DNA from: an uncultured Candidatus Saccharibacteria bacterium | GTDB taxonomy: Bacteria > Patescibacteriota > Minisyncoccia > Phycocordibacterales > Zambryskibacteraceae | Length of the DNA stretch: 64,000 nucleotides | NCBI GenBank assembly: GCA_964509605.1 | Contig: CAZDXF010000001.1 | Span: 79,619 to 143,618, forward strand | Direction: 5' to 3' | Shown: in pieces, positions 40,358 through 49,998 of the stretch | Numbering within the stretch: the stretch's first letter is position 1 | How the letters are laid out: every line of letters begins with the position of its first letter | Made by a program: the position numbers and the translations under genes | The notes under the pieces: generated by a model | Told to the model about the DNA's origin: nothing | Database searches by the model: none | The model's input: the letters and a program-made list of their open reading frames with translations, nothing else

Positions 40358-40429
40358 TGACCCTACCGGGAATCGAACCCGGCTTTGGAGCTTGAGAAGC
40401 TCCCGTCCTAACCGATAGACGATAGGGCC
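40358..40429 (-). tRNA. tRNA-Glu (anticodon CUC)
   Basis: Manual cloverleaf. Acceptor GGCCCUA/UAGGGUC, D-arm GUCU/GGAC with a GG loop, anticodon stem GGAGC/GCUCC with loop UUCUCAA, T-arm CCGGG-UUCGAUU-CCCGG, discriminator A. No encoded CCA. Confidence 0.85.
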
Positions 40430-44895: not shown

Positions 44896-45354
44896 TTAGA
44901 ACACTCCTATCTCGCCGAGCTTTTCTGCAGCAGAGTCGGCTTGTTTTTCAATACGCCTGCTGTAGTCGCTCCACTCTTTGTCGTTCCATATTTCAACTCT
45001 GTTATAGACTCCCGCCAAGACCACTTTGCTTTTCAAATTTGCATAGTCTCGCAAAAAGTCAGGAATCAAAATACGACCGACAGAATCAACTTCGACCTCA
45101 CTCGCTCCGGCAAGCATGAAGCGTGCAATGTCTCGCTGATCTCTTGAACCCATGAGAAGACTGCCAAGTTTTTTTGCCATTTCATTCCAAACATTTGAAG
45201 TAAACACAAAAAGACAGGCATCGAAGCCTCTTGTTACGATAATTTTTTTTCCAAGATCTCGGCGAAACTTGGAGGGGAGAGATATTCTCTTTTTATCGTC
45301 GACGACATGTGTGTATTCTCCAATAAATGTCATAGCAAATTCCACTTTTCCCAC
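44896..45354 (-). CDS. mraZ: Transcriptional regulator MraZ
   Basis: FIGEYTHVVDDKKRISLPSKFR with duplicated SpoVT/AbrB-like halves. It is the first gene of the dcw block. Confidence 0.9.
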   Translation of the reverse strand: MGKVEFAMTFIGEYTHVVDDKKRISLPSKFRRDLGKKIIVTRGFDACLFVFTSNVWNEMAKKLGSLLMGSRDQRDIARFMLAGASEVEVDSVGRILIPDFLRDYANLKSKVVLAGVYNRVEIWNDKEWSDYSRRIEKQADSAAEKLGEIGVF

Positions 45355-45444
45355 TTCTTCCCACTTAACTACAAGTGTAAAACACTTACTCCCACTCAGT
45401 GAAACTTTTTATCCACATTTTTGGTGAACTTCCGTTCACTAATA

Positions 45445-45490
45445 AAAAGAAAACCCACACGACACCTGGAATGGTGTCGTGTGGGAATTT
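45445..45490 (-). terminator. Rho-independent terminator of the GC-rich three-gene operon
   Basis: On the minus strand: CCCACACGACACCAUUCCAGGUGUCGUGUGGG + UUUUCUUUUU. Confidence 0.65.
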
Positions 45491-45505
45491 AGGAACAACT
45501 TTGTA

Positions 45506-47284
45506 TCAAACGCCAACGGTGAGACGACGCTTCTTTGTCGCCACCTTTTTGGACTGAGACTTGCCATCGGAAGACTTCTGATCCTTAACGTTGCTGTCAA
45601 GAATCTTCTTGCCACGACGTCCTCCAAACTGACGCCCGGCGATGGTATCGCCGTGAATCAGCATGAAAACGTACGGGGCATAGGTCTCCTCCAACACAAG
45701 TTCTGCGAACGGCGCCCAATCGCTCGGGGCGGCCCGGAGAGCCAGCGCCTGTAGCATGACATACTCCTGGAAACGCATCAGAGTTCTGTCACTGTGCTCT
45801 TCGCACTGTTGCCACAGAGGGTGCAGAACATTAATCCTCAGGGTGCCGGTTTCCTCTTCCAATACCCAGAGTCGGTCGCTTCCCTGAATAGCATCATGCA
45901 CCAACTGAAGTCCGAGACTGTTGCTACGGACAATCGTTCGGCGTGTGCCTTTTGGACCAACGACCGTCATGGGACGGTGTTCTGGACGTTCCTTCTCGGG
46001 TTCAAAGTTCTCATTACCCTCACCCTCACCATTTGAGGGCTTCTCGGGACGAAGGTTATTGACGGCCAGAGACGTTTCCGGAGAAGGACTTCCCTTCTTT
46101 TCGAAATGCCCAGGTCCAATCGAACCCTTCTTGAAAGACTCAATGGCCTTGAGAAGCCCAGCAAACTGCGGCCTCTTCAACATCTCTTCGATGACTTTCA
46201 TCGAACGAATGCCGAGTTGCTGGTAGCGCTCCTCTTGCCGCTGATCATTAGCGTCCTGATAATGCTCGGCGCCGTGTTCAGCGAACCACTTTTCGAGGAT
46301 CACACAGAAACCAACCAGCGACTCGTCGGCCTCAAACGACCGGCGACTGGCGTGGAGTGTGATTGCACTGTTGAGGACCTCACCCTCGAAAAGACCAGAA
46401 CCCAGAGCAGACACAAGCTCATCCGAGAGCTTACACGCCTCCGGCAAGGACCGATTGAATGTCGAGAAGTTCAGACGAAAATCGTTGTCCTTCTCGCCAA
46501 CCAAGACCTTACCATTGCGCTTACCCTTCTTATCCTTCTGGGCCAAGAAGAGTCGGAAGTGGGTCTGCCCCGACTCCCTGTCTCGATAATCGACCTCTTC
46601 CAGCTTCCTGCCAGTGAAGTCCTTGGCCCTGATTTCACAACTCTGCCGTTCACCGTCTTCATCGACGACAGTCAACTCAATCACCGACTGGTTCTTACGC
46701 ATGGTGGAAGCGAAACGCTCCAACACACCATCACGAAGGGAATCCATAGTCACGATGTTGATCTGTCGATCGGTCGTGAACCCTTCGATTCTCACCTCAG
46801 TACGCCAGCGAACAGAGGACACTCCACGAACCACTCGCGTCTCTGCCCGAGAAAACTGCAGATCGAGGCGCTCCCTCATGGGGATGCCTTCGATCTTCTG
46901 CTGTTTCAGGAGATCGTCGGTAACGAAGCTCCACTCCAAGAAACCCTTGGGGTTCCGCTTGGTAGTGGAGGTAAAGATGAATCGAGCACACTTGCCCAAT
47001 GGCGAGATAAGCCCAAGACCAAAGCGTCCCAATTTATCCTTCTTCTTGATGGAAGAGGAAACGCTGGTCAGGGCCTTTTCAAACTCTTGCTGACTCACTC
47101 CATCTCCATCATCGCGGACAGCGATCTGACGCTGCTTCTGATTCACAACGATGGTGATAACCTGAGCTCCCTTGTCGAGACAGTTTTGCACGCTCTCGAG
47201 CAAGACATCCAGGATCCTAGGGTAGTACCCCGCAAGTTTGAGCAGGGCCGCTCCCTCATGAAAACTAAAAGGGCTCTGTTTCAC
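45506..47284 (-). CDS. GHKL-superfamily ATPase (MORC/MutL/Hsp90-like Bergerat fold) with unknown C-terminal domains; third gene of the GC-rich operon
   Basis: N-box ESVQNCLDKGA (ExxxNxxD), G1 RDDGDGV, and G2 LGRFGLGLIS, followed by ~450 aa without recognised motifs, including an E/G-rich linker. GTG start with an AAAGGAGA Shine-Dalgarno sequence. About 55% GC. Confidence 0.7.
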   Translation of the reverse strand: MKQSPFSFHEGAALLKLAGYYPRILDVLLESVQNCLDKGAQVITIVVNQKQRQIAVRDDGDGVSQQEFEKALTSVSSSIKKKDKLGRFGLGLISPLGKCARFIFTSTTKRNPKGFLEWSFVTDDLLKQQKIEGIPMRERLDLQFSRAETRVVRGVSSVRWRTEVRIEGFTTDRQINIVTMDSLRDGVLERFASTMRKNQSVIELTVVDEDGERQSCEIRAKDFTGRKLEEVDYRDRESGQTHFRLFLAQKDKKGKRNGKVLVGEKDNDFRLNFSTFNRSLPEACKLSDELVSALGSGLFEGEVLNSAITLHASRRSFEADESLVGFCVILEKWFAEHGAEHYQDANDQRQEERYQQLGIRSMKVIEEMLKRPQFAGLLKAIESFKKGSIGPGHFEKKGSPSPETSLAVNNLRPEKPSNGEGEGNENFEPEKERPEHRPMTVVGPKGTRRTIVRSNSLGLQLVHDAIQGSDRLWVLEEETGTLRINVLHPLWQQCEEHSDRTLMRFQEYVMLQALALRAAPSDWAPFAELVLEETYAPYVFMLIHGDTIAGRQFGGRRGKKILDSNVKDQKSSDGKSQSKKVATKKRRLTVGV

Positions 47285-47301
47285 TGCAGTCTCCTTTTTG
47301 C

Positions 47302-48072
47302 TTATTGCTGGTGGTTGTTGACAAGCTCGCGAGCCTTCTCACTACAGAGTCGACTCGACGCTTTCGACAGGCGAAACATACCATCAGATCCAGTCCGCTT
47401 ACGCAGCTCGTTACGTTGTTCTCGACTGGTTTCAGAAACCGCCCTTTCAAGAAGAGGGGTGATAGCCAAAACCAGATGAGCCAAGACCTCAATTGAAATT
47501 GGGTCTTGTTTCTCAAGATCGAGTGCGCCTTTTGCTACTTGAGTAACTGGTGTACTGGGGGGGTCCGTCTCAACATAAATCTTGATTGACGGAACCCGCA
47601 TCAAAACGCTAAGCAGGGTGGCCTTTTTCTTTGCCAACTCTTCCCCTGCTTCCCCATAGAGCCTTTCTACCTTCTGCGTTCTGGCAGTGTTGGTATCAGA
47701 ATCCGCACGAGCCAAGCGAAATACGCTGTGCGTATCACCGAAACCAAGATGTTCACGGGCTTCTTCTGGCGTCAAAATATCGTACGCCAAAAGCTCGGCT
47801 AGCTTGTGACTGACATGATCAGTACCATGCACATATTCCACAAGCTCGTACCCAACCGCTTCGAGAAATAGACGAAGCTTGATCAGTGGCTCTCCCAACG
47901 GAACATTTCGACCATAAATCCAGGCCGATACCGTGTCAGGATGAACGCGCACAAACTCAACCAGTGGCAATTTCGCCTTGCCAGCTTCCTTGCTACCTTT
48001 CGGTGGTAGAGAATGTTCGGCAAAATGTGCCAAACACTCAATTGTGGTGCCTCGAAACAGTTTACTCATCAC
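47302..48072 (-). CDS. Hypothetical helical protein (256 aa); second gene of the GC-rich operon
   Basis: AAGGAG Shine-Dalgarno sequence 6 nt upstream. About 55% GC. It lies 17 bp upstream of the GHKL ATPase gene. Confidence 0.6.
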   Translation of the reverse strand: MMSKLFRGTTIECLAHFAEHSLPPKGSKEAGKAKLPLVEFVRVHPDTVSAWIYGRNVPLGEPLIKLRLFLEAVGYELVEYVHGTDHVSHKLAELLAYDILTPEEAREHLGFGDTHSVFRLARADSDTNTARTQKVERLYGEAGEELAKKKATLLSVLMRVPSIKIYVETDPPSTPVTQVAKGALDLEKQDPISIEVLAHLVLAITPLLERAVSETSREQRNELRKRTGSDGMFRLSKASSRLCSEKARELVNNHQQ

Positions 48073-48086
48073 TTTCTCCTTGTCGC

Positions 48087-48365
48087 TTATTGCTGGTTTA
48101 TTTCTGCGAGTGAAAAAGGTCTGGCCTCAAATGCGCGCCAACCCTTGGCAAACTTCTGGAGATTACCCAGAAGAACTACTTGACCCTTTCGGACATCTGC
48201 CGAACCTTTCCAATATTCGATCGAAAAGGTTACAGCAGTGCCCTTAGGTAAAACACCGTCGATTTTTGTGAAGGTTACTGCGTAGCGTCCATTACTGGAC
48301 GAACGAATTTCTCCTACAGTTGCCTCCAGAAGAGAATCTCTCTCTTCTCTCTTAACATTTGACAC
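48087..48365 (-). CDS. Hypothetical small protein (~92 aa, GTG start); first gene of the GC-rich operon
   Basis: An internal GAAAGGAGCAAAAAAGUG (Shine-Dalgarno + GTG) lies inside the track ORF 48087..48452. That ORF has no Met and starts with TTG directly after the lysS terminator. A TTGACA-N17-TATTGT promoter lies upstream at 48406-48434. The C-terminal tail and the following junction resemble those of gene 2. Confidence 0.4.
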   Translation of the reverse strand: MSNVKREERDSLLEATVGEIRSSSNGRYAVTFTKIDGVLPKGTAVTFSIEYWKGSADVRKGQVVLLGNLQKFAKGWRAFEARPFSLAEINQQ

Positions 48366-48405
48366 TTTTTTGCTCCTTTCAAAGAACTGTTTAAAAACTG
48401 GCAAA

Positions 48406-48434
48406 ACAATATCAGTAAAATTAATTTTGTCAAG
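48406..48434 (-). promoter_or_regulatory. Candidate sigma70-type promoter of the GC-rich operon (TTGACA-N17-TATTGT)
   Basis: Read on the minus strand. It is located between the lysS terminator hairpin (48462-48498) and the internal SD-GTG start. Confidence 0.4.
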
Positions 48435-48522
48435 ATTAGGGACTTTTATCAAAGAAGATCAGAAAACAAAAAAATACTGAGTAAATATCCTCAGTATTTT
48501 TTTGTTTTTTATTCACTTTTCT

Positions 48523-49998
48523 TTACTCTTTCCTCGGTTTAAGAGTTGGAAACAGGATAACTTCTTTAATATTTTTTGTATCAGTCAGAAGCATTACAAG
48601 ACGATCTATTCCTATACCAATTCCTCCATTTGGTGGCATACCATATTCCATTGCTTCCAAATATTCCTGATCGGACGGAGAAATTTCTGATTCTCCAGAT
48701 TCTCCTTTTTTGTCTTGCTCCAAATATCTTTCTTTCTGATCAATCGGATTATTCAATTCCGAAAATGCATTCACCAACTCCACTCCCCCAACAACAAGTT
48801 GAAATCTGTCTATCAAATCAGGGTTGCCATCTTTTCTCTTTGCGAAAGGATTCATTGCAACAGGATAATCAATTATGAAAGTTGGCTGAATGAGCTTGCC
48901 TCGAGCGGTTTTCTTATAAATATTGTCCAATATTTTTTCTAAAGCATCATCTGAATCAACTTTGACTCCAAGTTGCTGAGCGCGAATAGATGCATCTTCT
49001 CTTGTTATTGATTCTGGATTTGGTATGAGAGCCGTTCTCTTCAAAAGATCGTAGAAACTAACAACTGCAAATTTTTTTCCAAAATCAATCGTGTTTCCAT
49101 CATAAGAAATTTTGCTTTTACCAAACATTTTTTTGACAATGTGTTTGAAGAGGCGTTCTATAAAATCTCTCTGGCTTTTTGCGTCAGCATAAGCTTCGTT
49201 TGACTCAAGCATTGTAAACTCCGGATTGTGAGTGGTATCAATGCCCTCGTTTCTAAATCTCCTTCCCATTTCATAGACTTTTGTAAAACCGCCAACCAAA
49301 AGTTCTTTGAGATAAAGTTCTTGAGCTATTGGCAAATAAAAGTCGGTATCCAGAGCATTGTGGTGAACTGTAAAAGGTCGTGCTGTTGCACCACCGGCAA
49401 GTGGTTGAAGATGAGGCAATTCCACTTCCAAATAACCCTCTTCGTTATAAAACTTCCTAACCTCATCCATGAGACGAATCCTGAAAAGAAATCTCTCTTT
49501 GGTTTCTGGATTCATAAGAGTATCCAGATATCTTCTTCTAAACCTCTCTTCAATATCCTGCAAACCGTGCCATTTCTCTGGCAAAGGGCGAAGAGATTTT
49601 GAAAGCATTCTCCAAGAGTGGACTTGAATAGTTTTTTCTTTTCTTTTTGTTAAAAACAAATTTCCTCGAACTTCAACAAAGTCTCCAATATCAACCGTCT
49701 CTTGAAAAAGAGAAAATTCCTCGTCTTTTATTTTTTCACCCTTTTTAATTAAAGCTTGAAATTTTTCAGTCCCATCTGAAAAATGAAAGAAAATTATTGC
49801 GCCTTGAGGTCGTAGGGAAAGAATTCTACCAACAAGATTTATCGGCTTTTTTTGTTTTGAAAGTTTAGAAAAATTTTTTACTACTTCAGAAAGCTCATAA
49901 TCCTGATTTGAAGAGGTTGGATACGGATCTATCCCTCTGTCTTGCAAAATTTTTAGCTTTTCCAGTCTTGTATTTCTTATGTCGTCTAGAGAACTCAC
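48523..49998 (-). CDS. lysS: Lysine--tRNA ligase (class II)
   Basis: N-terminal OB fold and class II motifs ([18 protein letters not shown]; motif 3 near the C-terminus). Confidence 0.95.

Follow-up and report, generated by a model that had tools for sequence, protein, structure and literature searches.

A compact accessory cassette pairing a helix-turn-helix protein with a GHKL ATPase, inserted between lysS and mraZ and nearly confined to Patescibacteria

The pattern of conflict systems described for paraMORC proteins includes ATPases with GHKL and S5 domains, private C-terminal extensions, and a sporadic, laterally mobile distribution (PMC2292703); operons of MORC and paraMORC proteins are typified by superfamily II (SF-II) helicase, DNA methylase, and restriction-type endonuclease partners (Iyer, Abhiman & Aravind 2008, PMC2292703). 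Few defense or conflict systems have been recognized in Patescibacteria, and the defenses 'Dallas'/ddgA and ldgA, reported as restricted to this group, were described as lacking recognizable homology (PMC12366544). We analyzed a 64,000-nt stretch of contig CAZDXF010000001.1 (the window; all coordinates are window positions unless a locus is named), in which three genes, g1, g2, and g3, stand between lysS and mraZ. The segment at ~45443–48455 is best read as a horizontally acquired, self-contained transcription unit belonging to an accessory module that is undescribed and occurs almost exclusively in Patescibacteria; its third gene encodes a GHKL ATPase.

Like paraMORC and prokaryotic MORC proteins, g3 combines a GHKL domain with intact ATP motifs, an S5/transducer domain, and a conserved polar C-terminal extension, and its distribution is sporadic and mobile. 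Unlike theirs, its partners are an XRE-type helix-turn-helix (HTH) protein (g2) and a small beta-rich protein (g1). SF-II helicases, methylases, and restriction-type endonucleases were not among the 25 commonest of 167 neighbor families in a Pfam census of the 150 nearest neighbors at 43 loci (L006–L048, two per side where available; rarer cases are possible). The C-terminal module of g3 also differs in being unrelated by sequence to Pfam and PDB entries, and the family in being nearly confined to Patescibacteria. Since neither a known effector domain nor partners of the restriction–modification (R-M) type among the commonest neighbors were found, the cassette may be said to work like a MORC/paraMORC-type conflict module, not to be a member of that group.

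The model libraries PADLOC (2023), NCBIfam (2026), Pfam (2025), and PHROG contained no model covering g1, g2, or the C-terminal half of g3, and neither this system nor a link between GHKL proteins and Patescibacteria was described in the literature searched. PADLOC runs covering the three window proteins as well as 29 and 16 family members yielded nothing beyond short motif matches to TmtA and MzaB. TmtA, the protein of the single-gene Tiamat system, was the nearest PADLOC family by sequence (22 of 29 g3 members, best E 4e-10, ~70 residues); g3 of the window aligned only by residues 25–92 to positions 76–144 of the 1486-position profile (26.7 bits). MzaB of the MZA/MADS systems was matched by 5 of the 29 members, and g3 of the window scored 27.7 bits against a cut-off of 850 for NF041932. 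Both proteins differ from g3 in size, architecture, and partners. The cassette may be related or even identical to 'Dallas'/ddgA or ldgA, although a GHKL domain in these would probably have been noticed.

The segment between lysS and mraZ

Metagenome contigs were scanned with LysS of the window, yielding 80 relatives with 48–79% identity (loci L063–L142), in which the gene order greA–lysS–mraZ–rsmH–ftsL–pbp was kept. In the 45 related contigs holding both lysS and mraZ, the gap between the two genes was 148–231 bp in 16 and 148–600 bp in 25, and none had a homologue of g1, g2, or g3; in the window the gap is 3168 bp. Thus, the 3-kb segment is an accessory insertion. The promoter region of mraZ is ~85% identical to the cassette-free site of a close relative, L064, with the identity starting at ~45442, right after the cassette terminator. 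The downstream border of the insertion therefore lies at ~45443–45450. The upstream one is at ~48434–48462, between the lysS hairpin and the −35 hexamer; on this alignment the inserted unit (~45443–48455) comprises a promoter, three genes, and a terminator. The features of the segment and its flanks are as follows:

49998..48523, minus strand, lysS (flank)
48463..48508, strand not assigned, lysS terminator hairpin with 19-nt arms (flank)
48433..48406, minus strand, putative sigma-70-like promoter site, TTGACA-16-TATTGT with a TG extension
48365..48087, minus strand, g1, 92 aa from GTG, AAGGAG ahead of the start
48075–48097, minus strand, junction repeat copy 1, from the g1 stop codon to the g2 Shine–Dalgarno sequence (SD)
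48072..47302, minus strand, g2, 256 aa from GTG, AAGGAG ahead of the start
47290..47312, minus strand, junction repeat copy 2, from the g2 stop codon to the g3 SD
47284..45506, minus strand, g3, 592 aa, AAGGAG ahead of the start
45485..45454, minus strand, terminator-like hairpin of the cassette, 13-bp stem with 9 G-C pairs, then the T-run TTTTCTTTTT
45355..45442, minus strand, mraZ promoter region with repeated GTGG(G/A) boxes (flank)
45354..44896, minus strand, mraZ (flank)

The open reading frames (ORFs), all co-directional with lysS and mraZ, and their SDs are as a first-pass annotation of the sequence had described them, separated by 14 nt (g1–g2) and 17 nt (g2–g3). The mechanical ORF of g1 is longer (121 aa, from TTG 48452), and in a public assembly g2 is called from ATG 48069 (255 aa). 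The same annotation placed a strong terminator just upstream of the mraZ promoter and a promoter directly after the lysS terminator hairpin, where the terminator-like hairpin and the promoter-like site lie; for the promoter-like site, a consensus scan (10 of 12 matches) gave a spacer of 16 nt in place of the 17 nt reported. A 12-bp perfect palindrome, AAAATTAATTTT (48417–48428), lies between the −35 and −10 hexamers and could be an operator, though it is AT-rich and may have arisen by chance. The GTGG(G/A) boxes upstream of mraZ (..ATGTGGATAA..GAGTGGGAG..AAGTGGGAAGAAGTGGGAAAAGTGGAA) resemble MraZ operator repeats.

The two gene junctions are near-duplicates, as had been noticed before, and are identical at 21 of 23 nt. 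In homologous cassettes the junctions are built differently (in L002 and L005, g1 and g2 overlap by 4 nt), so the repeat is a lineage-specific feature of the window cassette; local duplication and conversion are both candidates for its origin. The C-terminal tails of g1 and g2, earlier given a common pattern E-[IL]-N-x-QQ, are only loosely alike (..AEINQQ versus ..ELVNNHQQ, each followed by the stop codon), and this likeness is due to the DNA repeat at the junctions.

The composition of the segment differs from that of the flanks. In sliding windows G+C content was 50–56% inside and 33–42% outside; for g2 and g3 together it was 52.2% against 38.2% in the rest of the window (+14 points), so the shift was real, and the earlier figures of ~55% and ~35% slightly overstated its size. 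The difference lies mainly at third codon positions, where G+C content (GC3) is 0.57 against 0.31 (+26 points).

Flanking direct repeats, att sites, or target-site duplications that would be convincing were not found at the insertion. The only tRNA gene of the window (40358–40429) is ~5 kb away from the cassette; tRNA-linked integration in the window was rejected for this reason. A search by the exact MraZ protein for a cassette-free strain of the same species gave a single contig, which also has the cassette.

The lysS|mraZ intergenic spot (45355–48522) is a variable site in this lineage: 20 of the 45 contigs carry 0.7–4.7 kb of unrelated cargo there, including membrane proteins, an ArsR-like gene set, and an insertion sequence (IS)-like ORF. 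The ArsR-like regulator is accompanied by a phosphatase-like gene and ORFs resembling phosphoenolpyruvate (PEP)-utilizing enzymes (L065), one ORF has an IS-type zinc-ribbon N-terminus (L088), and an ORF of 181–189 aa, membrane-associated in appearance, recurs in L108, L110, L112, L113, and L142.

Recurrence, mobility, and selection

A total of 72 full-length homologues of g3 (501–632 aa), none of them functionally named, were found in a collection of 5.8 billion proteins. Scanning one genome per species gave 56 loci with g3, at which g1 and g2 were sought by iterated hidden Markov model searches on six-frame ORFs. At all 56 loci g3 was immediately preceded by a g2 homologue in the same orientation, the g2 stop and g3 start overlapping by 4 nt at 15 of them. 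A g1 homologue directly upstream of g2 was present at 18 of the 56 loci, and two more loci were cut at g2. The conserved unit is thus a two-gene core of g2 and g3 with an optional g1; of the three-gene accessory system proposed initially, the insertion and the co-occurrence of its genes elsewhere are borne out, and the three-gene unit is not. The homology of g1, g2, and g3 was confirmed by pairwise BLASTP in a Sungbacteria genome and in an 'Acidobacteriaceae' contig.

A fourth conserved gene was not found: apart from g1 and g2, every neighbor family occurred at five or fewer of the loci. Homologous cassettes each have a comparable TTGAC(A/T)-N17-TAxxxT site and a terminator-like hairpin. The presence of the g2–g3 pair at 56 of 56 loci, the lack of any other conserved neighbor, and the promoter-like site and hairpin of its own together mark the cassette as an autonomous module. 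In the leader of the window cassette, TTCTTTGAAAGGAG (48373–48386) is similar to a 13-nt palindrome, TCCTTTGAAAGGA, overlapping the SD in cassettes L143 and L144; at 5 of the 56 loci, with ~1 expected, CCTTTGA is no more than 25 nt away from the start of the first ORF.

Nearly all loci belong to Patescibacteria (Saccharibacteria/Saccharimonadia, Paceibacterota, Sungii-, Vogel-, Taylor-, and Peribacteria, Minisyncoccia). A few are on contigs of 3.5–21.6 kb labeled Gammaproteobacteria, Thermotogae, and Acidobacteriaceae, which may be mis-binned. The cassettes sit singly at many different chromosomal sites, and their nearest neighbors are housekeeping genes: alanyl-tRNA synthetase (AlaRS), GroEL/ES, DnaE, ClpB, and SMC. 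A functional link to chaperone genes (groEL, clpB) was set aside, as three of the four groEL adjacencies represent one arrangement.

Exchange of the cassette between lineages was observed at the groEL site of Saccharimonadia. In three genomes the cassette is located immediately downstream of groEL, and in a fourth (L045) it has the reverse orientation, with the same two genes on either side:

L038:9087-11698, groEL-site cassette
L039:9085-11698, groEL-site cassette
L060:5678-8701, groEL-site cassette
L045:553-3839, groEL-site cassette, inverted

Hosts with 85% identical GroEL have g3 proteins of only 33% identity, whereas hosts with 74% identical GroEL share 84% identity in g3 and 51% in g2, the 84%-identical g3 pair being closer than any flanking housekeeping protein of the same hosts. 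This mismatch, together with the inversion, shows that cassettes are exchanged horizontally and that alleles replace one another at fixed spots. The cassette is therefore mobile: it is exchanged between lineages and replaced or inverted in place.

The compositional shift is also recurrent. GC3 of g2 and g3 exceeded that of the flanking genes at 45 of 50 loci (L006–L061), with a median excess of 15 points against 3 for the first and 1 for the second codon position, and reached 0.88 against 0.60. The excess persists at the conserved groEL site (in L038, 0.53 in groEL and 0.91 in g3). Donor bias, biased gene conversion, and codon selection are candidate causes. The ratio of nonsynonymous to synonymous substitution rates (dN/dS) was 0.05–0.28 for g3 and 0.06–0.52 for g2, with g2 more diverged in every pair; both genes are under purifying selection, and such low values indicate that they are real genes.

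The cassette might instead be left over from, or carried by, some larger mobile element, for instance as the repressor and an accessory gene of a decayed prophage or integrative element that do not function as a unit. This would agree with the foreign composition of the cassette, the resemblance of g2 to P22 C2, ImmR, and lambda cI, one locus beside an apparent tRNA gene (L015), and one matching contig in IMG/VR. We consider this explanation highly improbable: 56 genomes contain this compact unit, together with a promoter-like site and a hairpin, and g2 and g3 are both kept by purifying selection. A prophage or integrative element would have a recombinase, att repeats, or genes of phages or conjugation nearby; phage, integrase, transposase, and recombinase families were not among the 25 commonest of 167 neighbor families, and direct repeats do not flank the cassette of the window. 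No match to g3 was found in 50,697 phage and 72,556 plasmid records. The sole match among the 2.9 million contigs of IMG/VR is on a 354-kb contig, L062 (IMGVR_UViG_3300013121_000020), where genes for a sulfatase, a glycosyltransferase, a dUTPase, and a methyltransferase surround the g2–g3 pair; it looks like a fragment of a cellular genome, not a phage. With no phage or plasmid matches and this cellular-looking contig, a phage or plasmid origin of the cassette was rejected.

Some loci have additional features. In one g2/g3 subclade a protein of ~410 aa is encoded ~150 bp upstream on the same strand (L034:1756-3051, L036:7911-9122, L046:7909-9144, L050:215-1441); it has no Pfam or PDB match and may be an alternative accessory gene in place of g1. 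In a Minisyncoccia locus (L015:8700-8841) the cassette promoter begins ~10 nt past an apparent tRNA 3' end, judged by eye, the only tRNA-adjacent case. An orphan g2-like gene (L032:4403-5170) with no adjoining g3 was found 4 kb upstream of a regular g2–g3 pair. Its product has 255 aa and matches the g2 profile at E 6e-42; two small ORFs and a gene for a membrane histidine kinase come after it. On the 'Acidobacteriaceae' contig, a 244-aa ORF two genes downstream of the cassette (L005:5491-6225), not seen at other loci, gave a sub-threshold match to HNH_5 (E 4e-5, 23.8 bits, cut-off 27.5).

The GHKL ATPase and its partner proteins

The AlphaFold2 model of g3, built with 29 homologues, had a predicted local distance difference test (pLDDT) score of 85 and a predicted template modeling (pTM) score of 0.70. 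Three parts are distinguished:

46325..47284, minus strand, g3 residues 1–320, GHKL (Bergerat) ATP-binding domain and transducer/'S5'-type second domain
45617..46333, minus strand, g3 residues 318–556, family-specific C-terminal module
45506..45616, minus strand, g3 residues 557–592 and stop codon, Lys/Arg-rich tail, variable in the family

The tail was modeled with low confidence (pLDDT below 50 at 558–560 and 567–592). The motifs ExxxNxxD (E30/N34/D37), DDGDG (D58/G60/G62), and GRFGLGL (G86/G89/G91), recognized already in the first-pass annotation, are intact and are joined by motif IV (S106); these residues and R314 are 95–100% conserved in an alignment of 174 members, and Pfam HATPase_c_3 scored 50.9 bits (cut-off 25). 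With the ATP-motif residues conserved, an active ATPase is predicted. By its position at the end of the second domain, R314 is a candidate sensor of the gamma-phosphate. The part following the ATP-binding region had been regarded as ~450 residues with no motif; ~190 of them form the transducer domain proper to this ATPase class. In the MutL/GyrB/Hsp90/MORC subclass, the Bergerat fold precedes a transducer/S5-type second domain; this arrangement is present in g3, a GHKL ATPase of the MutL/Hsp90/MORC class.

The similarity of the g3 sequence to anything known was confined to the ATP-motif region of ~55–90 residues, and NCBIfam models (sacsin-like, MutL, MzaB, HtpG, BbrUII) all scored far below their cut-offs. 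Searched by sequence against PDB, g3 matched MutL (E ~2e-6) and, weakly, MORC2, MORC3, and MORC4 (E 7e-4 or worse). Its role might be that of a MutL/MORC/SMCHD1-like DNA clamp recruited by g2 and serving the host in repair, recombination, or chromosome organization, e.g., in compacting or processing incoming DNA in competent members of the candidate phyla radiation (CPR). MutL, in the form of its N-terminal LN40 ATPase fragment, is one of the closest known systems. The MutL model TIGR00585 reached only 30.2 bits (cut-off 180) and covered only residues 24–78 with the ATP motifs; g3 lacks the MutL C-terminal dimerization/endonuclease domain, is not a housekeeping gene, and has no mutS context, with no MutS, helicase, or nuclease among the commonest neighbor families. 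Five loci adjoin dnaE; at least three of them (L029, L031, L035) have extended common synteny and are not independent. The patchy, horizontally exchanged distribution and the turnover of the cassette are also unlike a core maintenance role, and we regard such a DNA-maintenance device as unlikely.

Foldseek comparison of the g3 model with PDB placed full-length Hsp90s at the top (E 4e-12, ~420 columns, TM ~0.35), followed by PMS1 and MutL. An invariant Arg in the second domain is a further point of likeness to Hsp90/HtpG, and an N/middle/C layout in three parts may be another. The Foldseek ranking and this Arg, along with chaperone genes among the neighbors of some cassettes, would suit a divergent HtpG-type stress chaperone (N-terminal ATPase, middle, and C-terminal dimerization domains) that remodels clients, with g2 as a ClgR/HrcA-like controller and g1 as a co-chaperone or client adaptor. 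Such a chaperone is improbable in view of the sporadic distribution and turnover of the cassette. Compared separately, the middle and C-terminal domains of HtpG gave weak matches to g3. The HtpG models scored 15.7 bits (PRK05218, cut-off 371) and 19.8 bits (PRK14083, cut-off 455), the TM value is low, and g3, unlike Hsp90/HtpG, is accessory, horizontally exchanged, and paired with an HTH protein. On these scores and architectures g3 was rejected as a conventional paralogue of MutL, HtpG, or GyrB.

The C-terminal module of g3 is composed of a long helical hairpin (321–382), a beta-sheet (386–485) with a disordered insert (411–429), and three helices (489–549). By sequence the module matches nothing in Pfam or PDB. 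It is family-specific: when 1.84 billion cluster representatives were searched with its profile, 418 proteins were retrieved, 269 of them at E ≤ 1e-30, and the top 150 all had the same architecture. Conserved polar residues of the C-terminal part are W333, R353, Q355, H393, H436, R449, S456, D476, N485, H488, C494, and E/D495, of which the set from H393 to E/D495 suggests a binding or catalytic site. The zincin-like zinc-binding motif HExxH or an equivalent was not found in the module. Reading the beta-beta-alpha element at 473–497 as an HNH/His-Me or GIY-YIG nuclease was rejected by inspection, as the spacing does not fit.

The g2 protein is all-helical: an XRE/Cro-C1-type HTH (~30–72), showing the five-helix lambda-repressor-like DNA-binding fold, is followed by a second helical bundle (~87–158), a disordered linker (167–189), and a conserved C-terminal helical hairpin (191–255) with the family motif ..TpEdR..LR.L.G.dgvF.LSN.LnRLCSERAR. 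The fold resembles those of repressors, antitoxins, and defense controllers, including the regulators of phages and integrative and conjugative elements P22 C2, ImmR, and lambda cI; the g2 profile matched P22 C2 and Pli0006 in PDB at E ~0.2.

The g1 protein gave no match in Pfam, PHROG, NCBIfam, PADLOC, or PDB. Neither of the two smaller proteins had been assigned a domain before, which holds for g1 and not for g2. The g1 family has the motif ITFSL..W.G...P..GQVV.L...F.kGWRA..A.P.; by inspection of its sequence, g1 is strand-rich, which suggests a small beta-barrel. Homologues of g1 outside the cassette were not found by word-indexed search.

A possible conflict module

In gene order, the g2–g3 pair is similar to HipB-HipA, NatR-NatT/ParS-ParT, the C-proteins of R-M systems, CapH of CBASS, and Aca: the HTH gene comes first and the effector gene second, with frequent codon overlap. 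As in XRE-HTH antitoxins and controllers, an HTH fold is combined with a helical C-terminal domain of the partner-binding type and a promoter of its own. Unlike in those pairs, g3 is a GHKL ATPase of ~570 aa, not a kinase, an ADP-ribosyltransferase, or a nuclease, and the HTH of g2 is undetected by Pfam. The likeness to type II toxin–antitoxin systems is limited to gene order, 4-nt overlaps, and the HTH fold.

The coupling of an HTH protein with an enzyme, the cassette's own promoter and terminator, its single insertion, its exchange between lineages, its foreign composition, and the GHKL and S5 domains joined to a private C-terminal domain lead us to propose that g2 and g3 form an undescribed defense or addiction module, a reading about equally likely to prove right or wrong. 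In it, g2 would regulate and would hold or target g3, an ATP-gated dimeric clamp whose C-terminal module would be the effector or dimerization element. More specifically, g2 would bind the cassette's own promoter and, by its C-terminal hairpin, g3, acting as a regulator and also as a neutralizer or adaptor, as XRE-type antitoxins and defense-system controllers do; the two proteins may be translationally coupled. Dimers of g3 would be maintained by the C-terminal module, and ATP binding would close the N-terminal gates around the substrate, DNA or protein. Within that module, the conserved H/R/S/D/N/H/C/E cluster could be the effector or partner-binding site, and g1 would be an accessory subunit specific to some clades. 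The module would act in inter-genomic conflict, either as defense against phages and mobile elements or as an addiction module.

A narrower form of this proposal, which we advance tentatively and hold to be less likely true than false, is an immune or addiction system essentially private to Patescibacteria, in which an XRE-type sensor/regulator would control a MutL/Hsp90-like clamp and the 240-aa C-terminal module would be a new effector, perhaps a metal-dependent enzyme (H393/H436/D476/N485/H488/C494/E495).

Several points weigh against a conflict module. The whole mechanism, like the conflict role itself, is inferred, the interaction of g2 and g3 only from gene order and overlap. The cassettes are not in defense islands: the first-pass annotation had called such genes typical of mobile stress or defense islands, and they were found singly between housekeeping genes such as those for AlaRS, GroEL, DnaE, and ClpB. 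R-M, helicase, and methylase partners are absent from the 25 commonest neighbor families. The phage and plasmid records yielded no g3, and IMG/VR only the one contig described above. Pfam HTH_3 and HTH_31 did not match g2 of the window, and HTH_3 matched 1 of 16 family members (E 0.017). Finally, the systematic GC3 excess is not accounted for by the conflict-module model alone.

The g1/g2/g3 genes form a real and coherent family that the libraries searched did not contain; its function is a matter of inference. Patescibacteria (CPR) represent a large share of bacterial diversity and have tiny genomes, and a compact, conserved, exchanged module is nearly confined to them. The small size of the cassette (2.4–3 kb) makes it directly testable by heterologous expression. 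The g3 protein belongs to the clamp class together with MutL, Hsp90, MORC, and SMCHD1, yet its C-terminal domain has no relatives in Pfam or PDB. If the cassette is a chaperone or DNA-maintenance device, it would show that reduced genomes exchange such functions in the form of mobile cassettes. If it is a defense or addiction module, it would provide a new effector domain and a new coupling of an HTH protein to a GHKL engine; an immune or addiction system essentially private to Patescibacteria would be a mechanistically new defense in a phylum with very few known.

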